Source of the DNA: Giardia intestinalis
Taxonomy: Eukaryota
DNA: 64,000 bases
Reading direction: 5' to 3' (one strand)
Assembly (NCBI GenBank): GCA_000002435.2
Contig: CM018792.1
The notes under the pieces were generated by a model. It did no database searches, had not been told where the DNA came from, and saw only the letters and a program-made list of their open reading frames with translations. A program made the position numbers and the translations under genes. The stretch's first letter is position 1. Each line of letters starts with the position of its first letter. Below are positions 24,288 to 58,149 of the stretch, one piece after another.

Positions 24288-24911
24288 CTAAAGAGTAAGC
24301 TTAAGAAATACGAAGGCCAGGGGGTAGAAGCCGCGGCGCGAGAGCTCCGTGACCCGCGCGAGGAGCCCCTGCTTCCGGCGCTCCTGGAGCTCGGCGCCGC
24401 ACATCGCGAGGGCCTCGTAGCGCCGCCGCTCGACGGCCTGCGCGCCGGAGGGCTCTGCCTCCCGGGGCCGCGGGGGAGCCCTGGGGGCTGCGGGCCCTGC
24501 GGTGCCGGCGGCGCACCCCGCGTACAGCGAGGCCGCGAGCTCGGGCGGGAAGCGGGCGGCGTACCCGGCCTGGAACGCGTCGGCGAGGAGGCGCAGGTCG
24601 ACGCGCGGCGGGTCTGCAGGGGCCCCGGCCCGGGGGAGGAGCCGCAGCTGGCCGCGGAGGAAGCCGGCGCCCTGGTCCTCGGCCGCCCGGGCCACCCGCG
24701 CCTCCAGGCTCCGGGCAGACAGGCGCACCGTGGCGGACAGCGCGGCCTCCGTCTGCAGCATCAGGCCGACGTCCCCCCGGGGCTGGGCGGCGTAGGACTC
24801 GTAGCCGTCCCGGAGCTCGGCCAGGAGCGCCGTGACCGCCGCGTGGTCCCGGGCCTGCGCGGCCGCCTGCACCCGGGCGGAGACGCTCGCGAGGCGCGCA
24901 CGGGGCTCCAT
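24288..24911 (-). CDS. hypothetical protein (207 aa), GC-island gene 1
   Basis: Within track ORF 24288..26309, the first ATG is at 24911 (MEPRARLASV…). The C-terminal 200 aa have a protein-like composition (…RRRYEALAMCGAELQERRKQGLLARVTELSRRGFYPLAFVFLKLTL). The part of the track ORF upstream of this ATG is R/G/P-dominated and judged spurious. Confidence 0.45.
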   Translation of the reverse strand: MEPRARLASVSARVQAAAQARDHAAVTALLAELRDGYESYAAQPRGDVGLMLQTEAALSATVRLSARSLEARVARAAEDQGAGFLRGQLRLLPRAGAPADPPRVDLRLLADAFQAGYAARFPPELAASLYAGCAAGTAGPAAPRAPPRPREAEPSGAQAVERRRYEALAMCGAELQERRKQGLLARVTELSRRGFYPLAFVFLKLTL

Positions 24912-24953
24912 CGGACGGGGCGGAATTTTGCCGGCCGGCCAAAAATTCACTCG
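24912..24953. promoter_or_regulatory. 42-bp divergent promoter inside the GC island (aattttgcc…caaaaattcac)
   Basis: The only A/T-rich patch in a ~75 % GC stretch. It lies exactly between two divergent ATGs. Confidence 0.4.
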
Positions 24954-26093
24954 ATGGACTGCATCGGCCGCGGCGTCCTCCTCCCCCCGGGCGGGGCGTG
25001 CTCGTGCGGGGCGCTTCTGGCGGAGCTGCAGCGGGTCTGCCCCCTCCTCGCCGCCTCCCCGGAGGTCTGCGCCGCGCCCCGGGCCCTTGTCTGCTGCCGC
25101 CAGCCCCCGTGCCTCGAGATCGCGCCGGCGCCGGCCACCCCGAGCAGCGCCGTCCGGGTCCCTGGGTCCGCGTGCACGGCTCCACCGCCCGCCGCAGGGC
25201 CCCCGGAGGCCGCCCCGGCCGAGAGCGTCCAGGTGACCCTCAGCGCCCAGCGCGAGTCGTTCGTGATGCAGACGATGCGGCAGGCGCACTACGGCGGCGG
25301 AGAGGCCCCCGCGAGGGCGGAGAGCGCCCGCCTGCCCGCCCCGCAGGCCTCGGACCCGAGGGAGGCCCGGCGGAGCCACGCGTCCCGCCCGCGGACGGCC
25401 GGCCCCCGCCTCCCCGCCTGCCCCGAGGAGCCCCCCGGCAGGGTCCAGTTCCGGGGCGCCCCCGAGGCCCCGCCCCTGCGCTGCGAGCCGGCCCCGCCCT
25501 CCGAGTTCAGCGACTTCGGGTGCGAGCTGCTCGCGGCGGGCCAGCCCGAGGACCGGCGGGTCTGCGGCGCCCCGTGGGTGGACGCGCAGGACCTGCTGAG
25601 CGACGGCTCCGAGCACAGCGAGTTCTACCGCCTCGTCGAGAGGGAGCTTGCGCGGCTTCCGGAGCCCGCGGCCCCGGCCCTCCCGGAGAGCGAGCCCTCG
25701 CTGGACGCGCTGCCCGTGCACGCCTCGCCCCGGGGCCCGCAGATCATCGAGCCCACGCCGGCCGCCCTGCAGGAGCCAGAGGAGCCCGCGCCCCCGCAGC
25801 CCCCCACGCCGGGCCGCTCCGACAGCGTCTCGGCAGACATCACGGAGTCGCTCCTCGTGGAGGGCCGGCCCCTGCCCGACCGCCCCCCGGGCCCGGAGCC
25901 GTCCGAGGGCAGCCCCGGGTACAGCGGAGAGGCCTTCGACAGCTCCGGCTCGCCCCGGGGCCTGACCGACGAGGCCGCGGGGTCTGCGGGCCTGGACGAG
26001 GAGGACCTGCTGGGGTCCGTCGGCGGGGACCTGCGGGCGCTGCTCATGGACAGCGGGTCCGGGTCGCTGTCTGCGGGGGCCTGGCCGGAGTGA
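24954..26093 (+). CDS. hypothetical Pro/acidic-rich protein (379 aa), GC-island gene 2
   Basis: ATG at 24954; the track start 24843 is GTG. The sequence contains SEHSEFYRLVERELARLPEP and DEEDLLGSVGGDLRALLMDSGS. The antisense frame here is R/G-dominated. Confidence 0.45.
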   Translation: MDCIGRGVLLPPGGACSCGALLAELQRVCPLLAASPEVCAAPRALVCCRQPPCLEIAPAPATPSSAVRVPGSACTAPPPAAGPPEAAPAESVQVTLSAQRESFVMQTMRQAHYGGGEAPARAESARLPAPQASDPREARRSHASRPRTAGPRLPACPEEPPGRVQFRGAPEAPPLRCEPAPPSEFSDFGCELLAAGQPEDRRVCGAPWVDAQDLLSDGSEHSEFYRLVERELARLPEPAAPALPESEPSLDALPVHASPRGPQIIEPTPAALQEPEEPAPPQPPTPGRSDSVSADITESLLVEGRPLPDRPPGPEPSEGSPGYSGEAFDSSGSPRGLTDEAAGSAGLDEEDLLGSVGGDLRALLMDSGSGSLSAGAWPE

Positions 26094-26116
26094 ACTCGGG
26101 AGAGCCTTTTTATTGA

Positions 26117-28627
26117 ATGGATTCTGCGCCACTCGCCGTCGCGATCCGGGAGCACGTCCCGGGCCCGAGGCCCCCGCCGCGGCCGTCCGGGGGGCGGTCC
26201 CTCTTCGCGCAGGCCGTGGCCGCCGGGGCCGGGCAGACCGGAAGGCCCTTCGCCCTCGGGCAGCCCCCGCCGCGCGCCCCGGCCCCAGCGCCGCCCCGGG
26301 GCCCCCCACCGCCCCCCGCCGCAGAGGACCCGGGCGGGCCCCTCCTCGGGTACGGGGGCGCCGCAGACCCGGAGGCCGTCCCGTTCTGCAGCGCGGCGGA
26401 CATCGGGCTCCTCTGCCGGTCGACGAACCCCGCTCAGCGCGAGTACGGGCTCCGGATGCTCGCGAACGCCGTCGCGCTCCGGCGCGTCCGGGACGGCGGC
26501 GCCCCCGATCCCGTCCTCGAGGCCCTGCTCTGCCTCCCCGCCGACCCGCACGCGTGCCCCTCGTCTGCCGGCCACCTCCTCCTCCTGGGCCTGCGAGACG
26601 CCCTGGAGTCCGGGAGCCCCGGCCTCCTCGACGCCGCCCTCTCCGGCCTCGCCACGGTCTTCGTCGCCGACGAGGGCTTCCTCAGCGAGACCGTCCACGT
26701 CGGGGCCGCGCTGCTCGGGCTGACGTCCAGCTCGGTCGCCTTCCCCCTCGGCTCCCTGCTGCGGCGGCTCGTCGAGCACGGGCTCCCGGGGCTCCTGGGC
26801 CAGGCCCTCGACGCCGCCGCGCGCGCAGACGAGCGGCGCCGGGAGCGGCTCGCCCACAGCGCGTACCTGCTGGCCGAGCGCGTGCTCATCGGCTGCTGCC
26901 CCGCAGACGAGCCCCCGGAGACCGCCGCCGGCCTGCGGGCCCTCGCGGAGCGGCTCCTCGCGGCGCTCCTGGGCGAGCTCGCCGGGCTGGCGGAGACGGG
27001 GGCCTTCCTGACGACCGCCTCCCGCGTCGCCCTCCGGACGCTCTGCTACGACCACGTCCTCGACGGCCACGCGCTCGGCCGGGACGCCGTCGCCCTCCTC
27101 GTCGAGTCCCTCGAGGCGTTCGTCGGGGCGCTCCCCGGCCAGGACGAGGCGGTCCGCACAGAGCTCCTCTCGGCCGCCACGCTCCACTACCTCCTCGTCG
27201 CCCGGGTCCTGCGGGGGAGCCCCGAGCTCTGCGCCCTGCACGCGGCCGTCTCTGCGACGTGCGCCGCCGCCCTGGAGCGCCACGCCCCGGCCGCCCCCGC
27301 GGAGCTCAGCGCGCTCCTCGTCCTGCTCCGGATCCTCCGGGCCCGGGCCGCCGTCCCCCGCGCGCGCCTGGGGCTCTCGGAGGCATGCTTCCGGCGGCTG
27401 GTCGACTGGCGGGCCCCGCCCGAGGCCGGGGGCTTCGCGCTGCCTCGGGGGCCCTCCGCGGCGTTCGCCCCGTTCTACGCCCTCGCGGCCGTCCAGTGGC
27501 GCGGCCCGGGCGAGTGGGGCGCGGCGGAGGCCTGGGTCGGCTGCGTGATGGACGTCCTCGCCAGCGGGCCCCCGGTCGCGCGCTGGGCGCCCCCGGCCGT
27601 CGACGCCCACCGGCGGGCAGGCGTGCTCCCGTGCGCGGTGACCGACGCAGGGGTCGCCCTCGCGCTCCTCGTCGCGGCCCTGGCGGCCGTCTGGGGCCCC
27701 GGGCTCCCGTTTGCCGCCGGCCTCGCCGAGCGGGTCGGGGAGCGCCTGGCAGGGCTCCCGGCCGAGTTCCGGTTCGTCGTCGCGTTCCCGCTCGCCCGGC
27801 TCCTCCCCCCGCTGCCCGCTATCGAGTGCGGGCTCTACCCGAACGCGGCGCTCCTCGGGGCGCTCCGGGCCGTCACGGGCCACCCGGGCTACGACCCCGC
27901 GGCAGAGGCGCTTGCGCACGTCGACGCCCGCTGCCCGTGCCCCGCGCTCGCGGCCCTCCACGCGGCGTGCGTGCTCGCCTCGGACGGGATGCGGCGCGAC
28001 GGGGCGTGGCGGCTCGCGGTCCTCCGGCTCGCGCTGCAGCGCCTGGCCGGGCTGGAGACCGCAGGGGCCGCCCGGGGCCGCGTCCTCGCGTACGGGCTCC
28101 TCTGCGTCCTCGACACGCTGACGGGCGTCTGTCGCCTCCCCCCGGACGCCGCGGCCCTCCTCGCGGAGACGCTCGCCGGGGTCCTCCGCCTCGCCCGCGC
28201 AGGCCCCGCCCCCGCCGCCGAGCTCCTCTACGCAGCGCCCGCCGGGGGGCTCCGGACGCTCGACGCCGCCGCCGGCGCGTTTGTCGAGGGCCTCCACGGG
28301 GGCGCGGCGGTGCTCCCCGAGGCCCCGCTCGTCTACCTCGCGCTCCTCCACCCGCAGCTCGTCCCGGACCCCCGCCGCCGGGCAGAGCTCTGGTCCGGGC
28401 TCGCGCTCCTGCGGCTCGACTTCGCGGCGCTCGACGGGGGCCTCCTCGCGGGGCTCTGCGAAGACGACCCCGCGCCCGTCCTCGCGTGCCTCGCGTGCTA
28501 CGAGCGCCGCGCAGAGACCGCCCTGTCGCGCCGCGTCCTCGCCCGGTACGCAGAGGCCCACCGGGGGCAGAGGCCCGACCGGGTCGTCGTCGCGGCCGTC
28601 GAGGAGGCCCTCCGACCAGCGGGCTAG
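26117..28627 (+). CDS. hypothetical Ala/Leu-rich protein (836 aa), GC-island gene 3
   Basis: ATG at 26117 with the tttttattgaATG context. The translation has a balanced composition including F, Y, W, H and C, and a helical-repeat-like character. The competing frames (26113..28890 on the plus strand and 25625..28561 on the minus strand) are Arg/Pro/Gly-dominated. Confidence 0.55.
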   Translation: MDSAPLAVAIREHVPGPRPPPRPSGGRSLFAQAVAAGAGQTGRPFALGQPPPRAPAPAPPRGPPPPPAAEDPGGPLLGYGGAADPEAVPFCSAADIGLLCRSTNPAQREYGLRMLANAVALRRVRDGGAPDPVLEALLCLPADPHACPSSAGHLLLLGLRDALESGSPGLLDAALSGLATVFVADEGFLSETVHVGAALLGLTSSSVAFPLGSLLRRLVEHGLPGLLGQALDAAARADERRRERLAHSAYLLAERVLIGCCPADEPPETAAGLRALAERLLAALLGELAGLAETGAFLTTASRVALRTLCYDHVLDGHALGRDAVALLVESLEAFVGALPGQDEAVRTELLSAATLHYLLVARVLRGSPELCALHAAVSATCAAALERHAPAAPAELSALLVLLRILRARAAVPRARLGLSEACFRRLVDWRAPPEAGGFALPRGPSAAFAPFYALAAVQWRGPGEWGAAEAWVGCVMDVLASGPPVARWAPPAVDAHRRAGVLPCAVTDAGVALALLVAALAAVWGPGLPFAAGLAERVGERLAGLPAEFRFVVAFPLARLLPPLPAIECGLYPNAALLGALRAVTGHPGYDPAAEALAHVDARCPCPALAALHAACVLASDGMRRDGAWRLAVLRLALQRLAGLETAGAARGRVLAYGLLCVLDTLTGVCRLPPDAAALLAETLAGVLRLARAGPAPAAELLYAAPAGGLRTLDAAAGAFVEGLHGGAAVLPEAPLVYLALLHPQLVPDPRRRAELWSGLALLRLDFAALDGGLLAGLCEDDPAPVLACLACYERRAETALSRRVLARYAEAHRGQRPDRVVVAAVEEALRPAG

Positions 28628-28628
28628 C

Positions 28629-28635
28629 GTTCACT
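28629..28635 (-). terminator. putative polyadenylation signal AGTGAAC overlapping the kinase stop codon (tgAGTGAAC)
   Basis: The + strand reads gttcact at 28629-28635. On the minus strand the motif overlaps TGA. Confidence 0.5.
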
Positions 28636-29563
28636 CAATCAGGGGCACCTGACCCCAGGGCGGCCCGCAGGCCCGCGACCTCCCCCCGGAGCCGGGCGAC
28701 CTCGTCCTCCAGGGCCTTGAAGCGCAGGGCCGTCGCGACCGCAGGCGCCCCGCCCTCTGCGTCGAGGAGCTCCACGAGGGCCGCGGCGGTGAGGCGGCGC
28801 TCCGGCTCCAGGACGAGGAGGTGGGCGAGGACGCCCCGGACGACGGGGTCCCCGACCGCGCCCAGGTCCGGCCGCCAGCCCGCGACGTAGACCTCCGCGG
28901 GGGCCCGCCCGGAGAGGAACGGGGGCCTGCCGCCCGCCGCGAGCTCGTAGGCGACCATCCCGAGGCTCCACATGTCCGCGGCCGGCGTGTGGCTCCCGCC
29001 CCGCAGGACCTCCGGCGCGGCGTAGACGGGGACGGCCATGGAGGCGAGCCCCCCGGGGCCCTCCCTGCAGAGCCCGAAGTCGGAGATGGCGAACTCCGCC
29101 CCGGCCTCGTCGAGGAGGACGTTCGCGGGCCGCAGGTCGCAGTGCGTGAGGGCGGGGAGCGGGGCGCCCGCGGCGTCGGTCTTCCCGGGCCGGTGGAGGT
29201 AGGCGAGCCCCGCGCCCACCTGGCGGAGGACGGCGACGACCATCTCGCGCAGGGCGAGCTGCCTTCTGCGGCGGAGGCTCCGGATGGCCCCGTCGAGGGA
29301 GCCTGCGTAGCGCCGCATCTCGACGTAGATGTAGCCCTCGTGCCGGACGACGCGCCCGTACTCGACGACGTTCGGGTGGCGGAGGCGCGGGAGGGTCCGG
29401 AGCTCGAGCTCGAGCGAGGCCTGCGCGTCGGGGGGCAGCCCGTCGGTCGGGATCTCCTTGACCGCCCTGTCGGGGGCGCTCTTCAGGCCGTAGACGGTCC
29501 CGTGGGCCCCGCTCCCGAGCTCTGCGCCCAGGTCTTCGAGGAGGGCGTCGATGGCCTCGGACA
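28635..29563 (-). CDS. NEK-family Ser/Thr protein kinase with C-terminal coiled coil, GC-island gene 4
   Basis: G-loop LGSGAHGTVYG, VAIK-like RAVKEI and HPNVVEY are present. The NEK-type insertion LHRPGKTDAAGAPLPALTHCDLRPANVLL resembles NEK2 CHRRSDGGHTVLHRDLKPANVFL. DFGL, YAAPEV, DMWSLGMVAYEL and a C-terminal coiled coil ALEDEVARLRGEVAGLRAAL follow. The ATG at 29561-29563 has the ttaaaaagATG context, whereas the track start 29609 is TTG. TGA overlaps AGTGAAC. Confidence 0.85.
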
Positions 29564-30019
29564 TCTTTTTAATCCGCGACTGGGCGATTGGGTGATTGGG
29601 CGGGCTCAATCGCTTGGGCTCAGACTGAGATACCGCCTAGCTGAGCGCCGCTCAATGAGGGTGATCGGGCGGAATTGAACGAAAAGGAAAGGACCCGACC
29701 ATCGTTCCAGAGATGGCTTGACCGAGTTCGCCTGTCGACTAGGATCAGATCAGGCAGCTAGTACTGGACTACTCACTATCAATATGTATTCTATCACTGG
29801 AGTTATGGAACAGCTAAGTGAAGTCTATATTCTTAAGATGAATCTTAATTGTCAATAATTGATGTTTACAAATCTGGAGTCTCTGCATCTTAGGTCAATC
29901 CTAAATAGGTAAATATGAGCATGTCCAGATAAAGTTTACTGTCAACCCACATAGTAAGATAAGTTAAAGCAGATTACGACCTCCGAGGTTGAAAGAGGGA
30001 ATGCTTGTTGATGACCTCA

Positions 30020-54802: not shown

Positions 54803-57112
54803 TTACAGCCACGCAGTTGTCATGTTGGCATTGAGTGAGTAGGGAGCCTCGTCTGATAAAGGCGTGTGTAGATCCGTTTCGTGGATAAGCGCTTCTACGC
54901 ATTTGGCGAACAGGCTGTGTTCGCACAGTAAGGCGTGGGCCTTAGGATACTTGATATCTTTAGACTCTCGGAACTCTGCGAAGGTTCGGGGTACTAGAAC
55001 AGGAGCATCTGCATCAGGTATATAATCGTTTAGGCAGTCCATGTCGACAGCGTAATAGTCGTACTTTATGGCCATGAGCATCATGCTATTTACCTTCGTA
55101 CAGAACCTCATAGTCTCGCGGAATATGGACCTAAGAGCTACCACGTAAGACACGGTCCGGAGCTTAGACTTATCCGCACTGAGCTCACAAGGCACCTCAT
55201 CTTCGTTCTTTTTCACGTCCTTTAAATAGAACAAACACAAGCGAGTAATGGTGTGTTCTAATAGCGATGTGTTCTTAGGACTCAGGCTCACACCCAGTTC
55301 AATAATTCCGCTGATGATCCGCACGCCTACAGATTGAATTACCGTGCTTTCTTTGTAGTTTCTCATGATGTTCAAAATGGTACAGAGCCTGTTTGAGCGC
55401 ACAATATGACTGTACAGGAAGAACGGAGAAATGATTAAGGGGAGCTGCTTCCAGTTGAGACAGTCCCCATAGTTATAGTTCATGACATCATCCACTGAAA
55501 ACACCGTATCGGTGTACATGTCGGACCACATAAACTCTCCTATTGACGTCTCCTCCATTAGTACGATCTTTCGTAAAGCAAGGTCGGACTGTACATCATC
55601 TGTGTCTCCGGCATCGTCAAAGAACTGCATAACCACCTTGGAAGAGTTCGCTACACCGATCGCATGACTAGTATAGAACAGATAGAGGTACGAGGCGACT
55701 TGGAGAGCTCTGCTAACCTGGTCATCCGTAGTAGTTCGGTTCTCTGAGGCGCATCTGTCAATGAACGACAAGGCCTCGGCGAGTGTGGTAACTATAGTAA
55801 TAAACTTGTGAGTGTATTTTGCCTCAAATTCATCAAGTGCCTCATTATCGTAGTGTTGTAGTTCATATTTGCGCGTTTTAGCGACTAGTGTTTTGCCTCC
55901 ATCTATATTCTCAGTAGACACAGAGGTGCACTTCACCTCTTCCTCTATAGAGTAAATTAAATGACTAATAGCAGTGTTGAAATAGTCGTTACGCTCCTTG
56001 ATGAATTCGTCGGATAGCTGGGGTGTGCTATGAATCTTCCTGAATTCCTTGTAGTGAAGTGCGACAGACCGCACCACAAGGTACCTCAACATATGAATGA
56101 TAACTTGGCCGCATATTTTCAATGTCATTAGCATGTCACTTAGTTCGGTCATACTTTTAGAGCTAGTAGAGATGAACAGATACTTGTCAAGGATGAGGCG
56201 GTAGTGGTCAAAAATCTGATCGCATAGATAGGGGACATTACAGCGTAAAATAGTGGCCAATATTGTGGAGTATGCTTCTGCCCGGGTGTAGCTGGATATC
56301 TTGTTGCCGATGGCAAGCCTAGAAAAGCTCTTCAGCTTATCCTCCATAGTGGCCTTAGAGCGATCCATATCGTTGTTCTTCGTACCGGCGCTAACAACAG
56401 TGCCGGTCATGTCTGGAAGCGTAATACCTGCAACCTCGCGGACAAAGTTTCGTATGACGCAATGGGAGGCACAGAGGTCGGCTATCTTCTTCGTCATCGC
56501 ATCAGTGCGGGTCTGATAATTCGTCAGGAAGAACAGAAAGACATCCTGGGCCTTACTATTGCATATACAGGCAAGCCACTTATTGAGTAGGGCTTTATCA
56601 TTAGTAAAGAGATCAATTACAGAGGACAGTCTCTCTTGCTTCTTAAGACCTGTGAGAATGAAAAGAGAAAGTCCGTCGATAAGCTCCTGCCTGCCCTTAA
56701 AGACAGCGGAGTTCAAGGCGGGTGAGGCGACGGGAGAGTTCACATAATAATGAAGCAGAGTGAACACTCTTACAAGTATCTCCTCACTACTAAAACATGC
56801 ATCCATTATAGCAGGGTTGGATGGAAAAGCTGAAAAGATGTCAAAGGCTAACGGCGTCAAATCTGAAGGAGACTCTGGAGGAAAAGCAAGATCTAGAAGC
56901 TGTAAGATGTTATCAGGCTTTAGAAACACCTCTGTTGCGACGCGAGTGGACTGGCTTACTTCGTTGGATGTGTTCTTATCACGTACGAGGGTATCGAAGT
57001 CAACTATTAGTGGTGGCTCGCCATCGTCACGCAGACCCGACCAGTACACATGCTGATTCATGATAGCATCAACTCTGAGCAAGTGTGCTTGGGGATCTGC
57101 TTGGGGAAGCAT
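54803..57112 (-). CDS. hypothetical helical-repeat protein (769 aa)
   Basis: A complete ORF with the aattttaaaaacccATG start context. It lies 20 bp in tandem with the upstream minus-strand gene. Confidence 0.5.
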   Translation of the reverse strand: MLPQADPQAHLLRVDAIMNQHVYWSGLRDDGEPPLIVDFDTLVRDKNTSNEVSQSTRVATEVFLKPDNILQLLDLAFPPESPSDLTPLAFDIFSAFPSNPAIMDACFSSEEILVRVFTLLHYYVNSPVASPALNSAVFKGRQELIDGLSLFILTGLKKQERLSSVIDLFTNDKALLNKWLACICNSKAQDVFLFFLTNYQTRTDAMTKKIADLCASHCVIRNFVREVAGITLPDMTGTVVSAGTKNNDMDRSKATMEDKLKSFSRLAIGNKISSYTRAEAYSTILATILRCNVPYLCDQIFDHYRLILDKYLFISTSSKSMTELSDMLMTLKICGQVIIHMLRYLVVRSVALHYKEFRKIHSTPQLSDEFIKERNDYFNTAISHLIYSIEEEVKCTSVSTENIDGGKTLVAKTRKYELQHYDNEALDEFEAKYTHKFITIVTTLAEALSFIDRCASENRTTTDDQVSRALQVASYLYLFYTSHAIGVANSSKVVMQFFDDAGDTDDVQSDLALRKIVLMEETSIGEFMWSDMYTDTVFSVDDVMNYNYGDCLNWKQLPLIISPFFLYSHIVRSNRLCTILNIMRNYKESTVIQSVGVRIISGIIELGVSLSPKNTSLLEHTITRLCLFYLKDVKKNEDEVPCELSADKSKLRTVSYVVALRSIFRETMRFCTKVNSMMLMAIKYDYYAVDMDCLNDYIPDADAPVLVPRTFAEFRESKDIKYPKAHALLCEHSLFAKCVEALIHETDLHTPLSDEAPYSLNANMTTAWL

Positions 57113-57186: not shown

Positions 57187-58149
57187 ATGGACAGTGATAA
57201 CATTAAACGCTACCATGTCGTAAGCATGTCTCCAGGAAGCGGTCCTCTGCATAGGGGCGTACCAGAACAGGACTCATTTGTCCAGGGGGGTTCAGGGACC
57301 CCGGCTTCGACGTTGCAGAACAAGGTGTCTACGTCCCAGCAAACTAGTGAGATGTACAATCCTCATTTAGTATCGGCGAATGTACAAACATATCGCACTA
57401 ATACCGTGGCACCAGGTCCGCACAGCCTCAATACCTCCTTTCCAGCGTACACTGGAACACAATCCTATCAGGCCCCTTTGGTACACCCATCATATCAGAC
57501 AGCTACGCAAGGCAATTATAACACAACAACTATGCGCGAATACAATCCGCACTTGGACAAGGACGCGCGTGTGGTTAGCGAAAACGTTATAGAAGTGCCA
57601 TCTGGACTTCCCGCGCGCATAGTCAGGGAGGAGCCTGTTGAGTTTGTTAAGGAGATAGTAAGGGAGATCCCGAGGGAATATATTCAACGCACTGTGTTTC
57701 AAGAGCCGGTTACATACATACGAGAGGTGACCTATGATGAGCCCGTCCTGGTCATGGAGCAAGTCGTGGAACGGGAGCCATATGCATATTATAAACGAAC
57801 GGTTGAAAACGTCCAAGGGGGTCAACGTATCATTTCTTCAGGAGGAGCCACTGTGCCAGTACAAAGCTTTCCTCAAACTCAAACCCCCACGCAACACTAC
57901 CCTGGGCTAGCAGCTGCTCCGGGTCCTTACGCAGCATACCCAACCAATACTCAAATGATCCCAACCACCAATTACGTCCAGGGTGCTCCGCGCACGATCC
58001 CGCTGAGTGAGGTTAGCTCACGACCAGTGCCGGTACCGGGCGGTCTTCAGGTCTCTCAGCCACCTCCCTCATTAGTAGCTTCACGGGGTACTATAGGGCA
58101 GCAACATTACATGGCCGGGAATTCGCGCCTCAATACCTCACGGGGATAA
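57187..58149 (+). CDS. hypothetical protein with Val/Glu/Pro-rich 'EPV/EIVRE' repeats (articulin/alveolin-like motif) and Q/P/T-rich tails
   Basis: The internal repeat block is IVREEPVEFVKEIVREIPREYIQRTVFQEPVTYIREVTYDEPVLVMEQVVEREPYAYYKRTVE. The start is gaggaaaaacaggcgcatcATG. Confidence 0.5.
   Translation: MDSDNIKRYHVVSMSPGSGPLHRGVPEQDSFVQGGSGTPASTLQNKVSTSQQTSEMYNPHLVSANVQTYRTNTVAPGPHSLNTSFPAYTGTQSYQAPLVHPSYQTATQGNYNTTTMREYNPHLDKDARVVSENVIEVPSGLPARIVREEPVEFVKEIVREIPREYIQRTVFQEPVTYIREVTYDEPVLVMEQVVEREPYAYYKRTVENVQGGQRIISSGGATVPVQSFPQTQTPTQHYPGLAAAPGPYAAYPTNTQMIPTTNYVQGAPRTIPLSEVSSRPVPVPGGLQVSQPPPSLVASRGTIGQQHYMAGNSRLNTSRG

Follow-up and report, generated by a model that had tools for sequence, protein, structure and literature searches.

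A nearly invariant core of 12-residue repeats in the Giardia disc-associated protein DAP101326 resembles articulins in design

We analysed a 64,000-nucleotide stretch of the Giardia intestinalis genome (assembly GCA_000002435.2, contig CM018792.1; hereafter the window) for the gene that encodes the disc-associated protein DAP101326, and found that the centre of this protein is an almost invariant block of six in-phase 12-residue repeats set between diverging, low-complexity flanks. Our assessment, which we hold at a probability of roughly 55%, is that DAP101326 is a structural protein of the cytoskeleton, restricted to Giardia, and that its core self-assembles or joins a conserved lattice. DAP101326 itself, under that name, and its localisation in the cell have been published before. 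Three things appear to be unreported so far, namely that the protein is built from 12-residue repeats, that its core is exceptionally well conserved, and that it has an articulin-like design while not belonging to the family. Our literature search found no functional study of DAP101326 and no account of its repeats.

The 320-residue product of the open reading frame (ORF) is identical, residue for residue, to GL50803_00101326 (old ID GL50803_101326; XP_001704433.1; UniProt A8BWK6) of G. intestinalis WB clone C6 (hereafter WB), which is annotated as a 'hypothetical protein'. Homology searches, including one with a hidden Markov model (HMM) of the core against 1.84 billion representative proteins, confined its homologues to Giardia. 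They comprise DHA2_151715 of assemblage A2, GLP15_1052 of assemblage E (94% identity), GL50581_4322 and GSB_150028 of assemblage B (about 80% identity), homologues in two further Giardia assemblies (70% and 67% identity) and GMRT_15079 of G. muris, whose match is restricted to the central quarter of DAP101326. No paralogue was found in the window by tblastn with the core, and a PDB sequence search with DAP101326 gave no match at E<=10.

The repeat structure of the core is evident from autocorrelation. Over residues 144-203, residue identities gave 16 matches at lag 12, compared with 5.0 +/- 2.1 in 5000 shuffles (z=5.3, p<2e-4), with a harmonic at lag 24 (z=4.1), and residue classes gave z=4.2 at lag 12 and z=5.0 at lag 24; none of the other lags from 2 to 24 was significant. 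In register, the six units read ENVIEVPSGLPA, RIVREEPVEFVK, EIVREIPREYIQ, RTVFQEPVTYIR, EVTYDEPVLVME and QVVEREPYAYYK, and they follow the consensus [E/R]-Φ-V-x-E-x-P-Φ-x-Φ-Φ-[K/R/E/Q]. Position 1 is E, R or Q, position 3 is V, position 5 is E, Q, D or R, and position 7 is proline in all six units, at residues 138, 150, 162, 174, 186 and 198. Positions 2-3 form a hydrophobic pair and positions 10-11 an aromatic or aliphatic pair, with charged residues at positions 1 and 12. Tandem Repeats Finder detected no DNA-level tandem repeat in the gene, and the units must therefore be old and diverged.

The regions on either side of the repeats differ from them in composition. The head contains S 12%, T 12%, P 9%, Q 8%, N 7% and Y 6%, and the tail P 14%, G 12%, Q 11%, S 10% and T 10%. 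The core consists of V 20%, E 19%, R 11%, P 9%, I 7.5%, Y 7.5%, T 5% and Q 4%, with A at 2.5% and G at 1.2%, and is net acidic (E 19% plus D 1% against R 11% plus K 2.5%). An initial annotation of this gene, made from the letters and their translations, had quoted a block (IVREEPVEF...VVEREP) that corresponds to residues 145-198, described it as a series of E-x-(I/V)-x-E-(I/V)-P repeats and made its reading depend on a repeat period being present. The repetition and a significant period are indeed there, with a unit of 12 residues and not the heptad-like one suggested. The flanks, which it had called Q/P/T/Y-rich, are of low complexity as described, with a composition that is better given as S/T/P/Q/N/G-rich. 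The head carries two copies of the motif YNPHL (Table 1). The second copy, which lies within REYNP[H/Q]LDKDAR, directly precedes the core; all G. intestinalis-type orthologues retain it, and G. muris does not. YNPHL may be a short linear motif.

Conservation was read from a six-sequence alignment, and the proportions of nonsynonymous and synonymous differences (pN and pS) were obtained by codon-level comparison with WB as the reference. The segment R128-E207 is almost invariant among the six sequences, and conservation stops near E207-G211. The head and tail are divergent and, in the case of G. muris, whose tail is much shorter, cannot be aligned. Between WB and the assemblage B orthologue (P0003), the core has a pS of 0.69 and a pN of 0.019, which corresponds to a ratio of nonsynonymous to synonymous substitution rates (dN/dS) of about 0.01, compared with 0.083 for the head and 0.086 for the tail. 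Against the most divergent intestinalis-like sequence (P0005), the pN of the core is 0.005 at a pS of 0.85, which is saturated and leaves dN/dS not computable, and the pN of the head and tail is 0.24 and 0.21, respectively. Outside the core, dN/dS is 0.08-0.19 overall, and 0.09-0.19 in the tail. The amino-acid identity of the head to WB is 72% in assemblage B (P0003), 54% in P0005 and 15% in G. muris. Between G. muris and WB the core is still 80% identical, compared with 13-15% for the head and tail and 22% for the adjacent gene. The core dN/dS of about 0.01, together with the 80% identity to G. muris, indicates that nearly every core residue is under strong purifying selection. Constraint of this strength means that nearly every residue matters, as it would if the core were tightly packed or bound a conserved lattice, and the core is more than a loosely compositional repeat.

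Giardia attaches to the gut via its ventral disc, and the seal is formed by the lateral crest. Table 1 of McInally & Dawson 2016 (PMC4931700) lists GL50803_101326 as hypothetical and gives no Pfam domain for it; its fusion to green fluorescent protein (GFP) is recorded there at every basal body, at the lateral crest of the ventral disc and on the cytoplasmic caudal axonemes. Supplementary file 3 of PMC13322205 names the same protein DAP101326 and gives its localisation, still as hypothetical, in an entry that cites PMID 32661087. On this published localisation DAP101326 counts as a Giardia disc-associated protein (PMC4931700, PMC13322205). The initial annotation had guessed that the protein is cytoskeletal, belonging for example to the ventral disc or to flagella, and the published GFP data, which the exact match to GL50803_101326 ties to this gene, bear it out. 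About a third of the disc-associated proteins are 'hypothetical' and without a recognisable domain, and most are without known microtubule-binding motifs (10.1101/361105). The lateral crest is described as repetitive in structure, situated beyond the microtubule array and able to contract independently of canonical actin-binding proteins, and its composition is largely unknown (bioRxiv 10.1101/2023.07.04.547600).

As a structural protein of these sites, DAP101326 would work through its core as an assembly or binding module. The build of the protein is tripartite, with a low-complexity head and tail around the core, both predicted to be disordered. Each unit would form a short stretch in extended or beta conformation (Φ-x-Φ-Φ-±-±-Φ-Φ) with an acidic-Pro turn as its boundary, and the six stretches would pack together, with other copies of DAP101326, or onto an equally conserved periodic partner. 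Cores packed in this way may build or cross-link fibrous, non-microtubule matrix in the lateral crest and in the basal-body/caudal-axoneme complex, and the flexible, drifting tails may act as spacers or weak multivalent linkers. Structure prediction with AlphaFold2 (AF2) on the full alignment gave a mean predicted local distance difference test score (pLDDT) of 37.6 and no secondary structure, with the head at about 33. The core alone gave one short helix and five strands, each about 9 residues long, or close to one strand for every repeat (pLDDT 43.6), and this model is compatible, at low confidence, with the beta-strand/turn reading. Identification of the protein by structure was rejected, as both models were too poor for a fold search.

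The combination of a short, extremely conserved module with disordered tails is also typical of interaction domains. DAP101326 might accordingly be a small adaptor or regulator, in which a compact 80-residue domain serves one partner (e.g., a disc ankyrin or NEK protein), the repeats are a relic, and the sites of localisation follow the partner. Several ankyrin and NEK disc-associated proteins likewise localise to multiple sites (PMC4931700 Table 1), and the basal-body signal may be docking (PMC4931700). But six in-phase units with an invariant proline every 12 residues speak for a periodic structure over a globular one, and AF2 gave no confident compact fold; we regard such an adaptor as improbable.

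The periodicity may instead be matched to the microtubule lattice. DAP101326 would then be a ruler or microtubule-associated protein whose six extended units bind one per tubulin monomer, decorating the microtubules of the basal bodies, the caudal axonemes and, next to the lateral crest, the outermost disc margin. By our own arithmetic, 12 extended residues would span about 4 nm, i.e., one tubulin monomer, and all three localisation sites are microtubule-based or adjacent to microtubules. A core dN/dS of about 0.01 suits an extremely conserved partner such as tubulin, and new microtubule-binding motifs are to be expected, given how few disc-associated proteins have known ones (10.1101/361105). 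The core is, however, net acidic, whereas proteins that bind the microtubule surface are usually basic. In addition, the lateral crest is not part of the microtubule array, and the protein is not found on all axonemes or on the disc body, a distribution that lattice binding alone cannot explain. We therefore consider a microtubule ruler possible but unlikely, and favour a structural protein that assembles through its core.

The initial annotation had also likened the repeats to those of articulins and alveolins and had named a comparison with articulin/alveolin (IMC) domains as a check. Pfam-A hmmscan, run at E<=10 with IMCp (PF12314) and DUF2816 (PF10992) included, returned 0 families for the full protein, the core and the G. 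muris orthologue. A significant match to IMCp is what Goodenough et al. 2018 required for their 'Pfam set'. We compared the core further, by Smith-Waterman scores, with reference alveolins, Euglena articulins, and Paramecium articulins and epiplasmins taken from the supplements of Goodenough et al. 2018. The plain control consisted of composition-preserving shuffles of the Giardia core. Because plain shuffles destroy the period too, we used a stricter, period-preserving control, in which one random permutation of the 12 positions was applied to all six units and both the period and the column composition were kept. Similarity to Paramecium articulin was z=4.8 against plain shuffles and z=3.0 (p=0.006) under the period-preserving control, and similarity to the Euglena 80K articulin was z=4.3 and z=2.1, respectively. 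Three domains of apicomplexan alveolins gave z=0.8-2.5 with plain shuffles and z=0.2-0.9, not significant, with the period preserved, and the Paramecium epiplasmins gave z about 0 and z=-0.3. When the Giardia sequence was reversed, it scored against these two articulins as well as the forward sequence did (reversed 92 against forward 96, and 98 against 89). After the within-unit permutation and reversed-sequence controls, the z=4-5 seen against plain shuffles was rejected as evidence of articulin kinship. The similarity to articulins that remains is of the kind expected between two independent Pro-punctuated V/E 12-mers.

Membership in the other two families was rejected as well. A matrix of alveolin 12-mers (21 reference strings) scored the Giardia units at about 0 bits (z=3.1 against shuffles), a weak match, which together with the missing IMCp match and the non-significant result under the period-preserving control speaks against an alveolin. 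Homology to epiplasmins was prompted by the ~80-residue Y/E/V/P core and the Q/P-rich flanks, and was rejected because hhalign of the Giardia core alignment against ten Paramecium epiplasmin cores gave a probability of 0.3% (E=0.17), the Smith-Waterman z was about 0 and there was no DUF2816 match. Among the features by which these proteins are recognised, a 12-residue Val/Pro-rich repeat core as in articulins is present (six units, z=5.3; V 20%, P 9%), though it is E/R-rich. The core (residues 128-207) contains 0 VPV, compared with the >3 used by Goodenough et al. 2018 to call articulins; the only two VPV triplets of DAP101326 are in its tail, at residues 223 and 281. Acid-base dyads were not enriched in the core: its 80 residues contain 7, and composition-matched shuffles gave 4.4 +/- 1.8 (p=0.12). 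With regard to the beta-strand/random-coil medial part predicted for epiplastins, the indications are mixed: five strands and a short helix at pLDDT 43.6 for the core alone, no secondary structure in the full-length model, and equal Chou-Fasman averages for beta and alpha. The head/medial/tail layout of an epiplastin, with a medial part rich in V/E/I/K/R/Q/P/Y and poor in A and G, is found in DAP101326. Its GFP sites do not form a cell-wide skeleton, and thus do not correspond to the sub-plasma-membrane or sub-alveolar residence of epiplastins; a local analogy with the epiplast is possible, in that the lateral crest adjoins the ventral membrane.

A more distant relation can also be imagined, namely that DAP101326 is a true but divergent articulin/alveolin ('epiplastin') homologue, inherited from an early eukaryotic membrane-skeleton protein. 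The period of 12, the Pro-anchored V/I/E/basic unit, one near-canonical ENVIEVP, the head/medial/tail layout with its A- and G-poor core and the nominally significant similarity to Paramecium articulin under the period-preserving control would all fit such descent. Yet neither IMCp nor DUF2816 was matched at E<=10, the exhaustive profile search of 1.84 billion representative proteins gave no match to an articulin or alveolin, and the reversed sequence scored equally well, with alveolins non-significant and epiplasmins at 0.3% in hhalign. The core has neither VPV nor an enrichment of dyads, Goodenough et al. 2018 found no epiplastins in non-euglenid excavates, and convergence is easy for short repeats. 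We hold true homology to be highly improbable, and articulin/alveolin family membership of DAP101326 is not supported by these comparisons. What the initial annotation had noticed is thus retained as a resemblance of design (12-residue period, Pro anchor, V/I/E/R units) and given up as a family relation, in view of the missing IMCp and the controls. DAP101326 is lineage-specific, and its articulin-like design was probably acquired independently.

The likeness to articulins is one of design only, and lies in the period of 12, the proline anchor and the way in which V/I alternate with E and with basic residues. Articulins share with DAP101326 the 12-residue period, the Pro-anchored V/I/E/basic unit, the low-complexity flanks and a place in an actin-free cytoskeletal structure, and Giardia VREEPVEFVKEI lines up with Paramecium articulin KEVPYEVIKEVI. 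Articulins have many VPV and >30 units, whereas DAP101326 has no core VPV and 6 units, and it is located at the lateral crest, basal bodies and axonemes rather than in a cell-wide membrane skeleton. Alveolin domains can similarly be parsed into 12-residue strings (EKVVEVPQYVYQ and similar), and among the Giardia units ENVIEVP comes near the alveolin signature EKIVEVP. Giardia itself is without alveoli. Closest of the three families in architecture and size are the epiplasmins, which are about 300 residues long, have a Y/E/V/P/R-rich core of about 80 residues between a long Q/P/V/Y low-complexity head and tail, and form filaments of 5 nm when assembled in vitro. In epiplasmins, too, the last prolines of the core are spaced by 12 residues, but the motif order is E-Y-V-P-V, in contrast to E-E-P-V-x-Y in Giardia, and there is no sequence relationship. 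By analogy with articulins and epiplasmins, the working design of DAP101326 would be that of a repeat core with low-complexity flanks forming an actin-free skeleton.

Beyond the Giardia orthologues, the core HMM returned two weak matches, P0007 and P0008, the second of which was rejected as an unrelated GESTFDEC repeat. P0007, the best non-Giardia match (profile E-value 4e-5 across 1.84e9 proteins), is a bacterial-type metagenomic protein (ENA; 325 kb contig) with a C-terminal bacterial DUF2760 domain and about 15 near-perfect IKEVPVEVIREV 12-residue repeats; a Pfam MgtE_N match in it looks like a repeat artefact. BLASTP aligned P0007 to the core ungapped over 63 residues in the 12-residue register (35% identity, 67% positives), and ungapped alignment to the Giardia core in this register extends over 63-78 residues. 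The P0007 array gave z=8.7 against plain shuffles and z=4.3 under the period-preserving control, and scored 128 forward compared with 83 reversed. The match slides by multiples of 12, which indicates similarity of repeat pattern and not an orthologous domain. Unlike DAP101326, P0007 has no low-complexity tails, and carries a perfect, recently homogenised repeat on an unrelated bacterial domain. Goodenough et al. 2018 mention 'articulins' in Caulobacter, and P0007 is akin to them, being likewise an articulin-like array outside eukaryotes.

Several observations weigh against a structural protein of articulin-like design that assembles through its core. The DAP101326 gene is single copy, whereas articulins, alveolins and epiplasmins are multigene families, and its core is nearly invariant, whereas articulin-type repeat families are fast evolving. 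Self-assembly and the structure of the core are themselves inferred: both AF2 models are of low confidence (pLDDT 37.6 and 43.6), the Chou-Fasman averages for the core are neutral (beta = alpha = 1.06), and the spacing of the hydrophobic residues (positions 2, 3 and 10, 11) would equally fit short amphipathic helices. Finally, a basal-body GFP signal may mean docking rather than structural incorporation, a caveat made in PMC4931700.

Carried one step further, the structural reading would make the fibrous material of the lateral crest and of the basal-body/caudal-axoneme complex partly an articulin-like, beta-rich, Pro-punctuated filament system with DAP101326 as an assembly subunit. We put this forward as a speculation that is, at present, decidedly improbable. 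If true, it would mean that a metamonad has an actin-independent elastic skeleton, either by convergence with articulins and epiplasmins or by very ancient ancestry, and such a filament system could underlie the actin-free contractility and sealing of the lateral crest. A defined module in the 'hypothetical' DAP101326 offers a concrete handle on one component of the lateral crest and basal bodies, and adds a metamonad example to the V/E/P 12-mers that recur in protist skeletons, which is not a new principle.

Table 1. Positions in the window of DAP101326, its parts and the surrounding features
Feature	Position	Strand	Description and basis
Complete coding sequence, GL50803_101326 = DAP101326	57187..58149	+	320 residues plus stop; ATG-to-stop ORF from ORF listing
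Head, residues 1-127	57187..57567	+	S/T/P/Q/N/Y-rich, low complexity, fast evolving
First YNPHL motif, residues 57-61	57355-57369		In head
Second YNPHL motif, residues 119-123	57541-57555		In head, directly before core
Ultra-conserved core, residues 128-207	57568..57807	+	Alignment, codon comparison
Six in-phase 12-residue repeats, residues 132-203	57580..57795; starts 57580, 57616, 57652, 57688, 57724, 57760	+	36 nt each; autocorrelation, column profile
Degenerate seventh unit RTVENVQGGQRI, residues 204-215	57796..57831	+	Positions 1-3 kept, Pro absent; read from register
Tail, residues 208-320	57808..58146	+	P/G/Q/S/T-rich, low complexity
Neighbour gene	54803..57112	-	769 residues, no Pfam domain, divergently transcribed; ORF listing, context only
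ORF just downstream of DAP101326	58293-58724	+	143 residues
GC-rich block	24300-29700		Sharply bounded, ~5.4 kb
Protein kinase ORF in GC-rich block	28635..29609	-	Pkinase E=1.5e-31
Long ORFs downstream of kinase ORF	25625..28561 and 24288..26309	-	No Pfam match

The start codons of the DAP101326 gene and of its divergently transcribed neighbour are 74 bp apart, and the head-to-head pairing with a gene of ~760 residues recurs in every Giardia locus examined (L001, L003 and, in G. muris, L002). The ORF just downstream of DAP101326 weakly resembles Pam16, with E=0.007 and 16.8 bits where the cut-off is 30.3 bits, and a 136-residue gene of similar size follows the orthologue in locus L001. The resemblance could be due to chance, or the ORF could encode a divergent subunit of the mitosomal import motor.

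Elsewhere in the window lies a block with 76-81% GC, compared with ~47% GC for the genome and 36-39% in its flanks. The block is not a tandem repeat, and its identification as ribosomal DNA was rejected, as it had no Rfam match at the gathering threshold or at E<=0.01. Three minus-strand ORFs in this region are listed in Table 1. The two long ones have no Pfam match, and the third encodes a protein kinase domain. This kinase ORF is native to Giardia: its counterpart in G. lamblia P15 is annotated as 'Kinase, NEK' (87% identity), and it is conserved in other assemblages.

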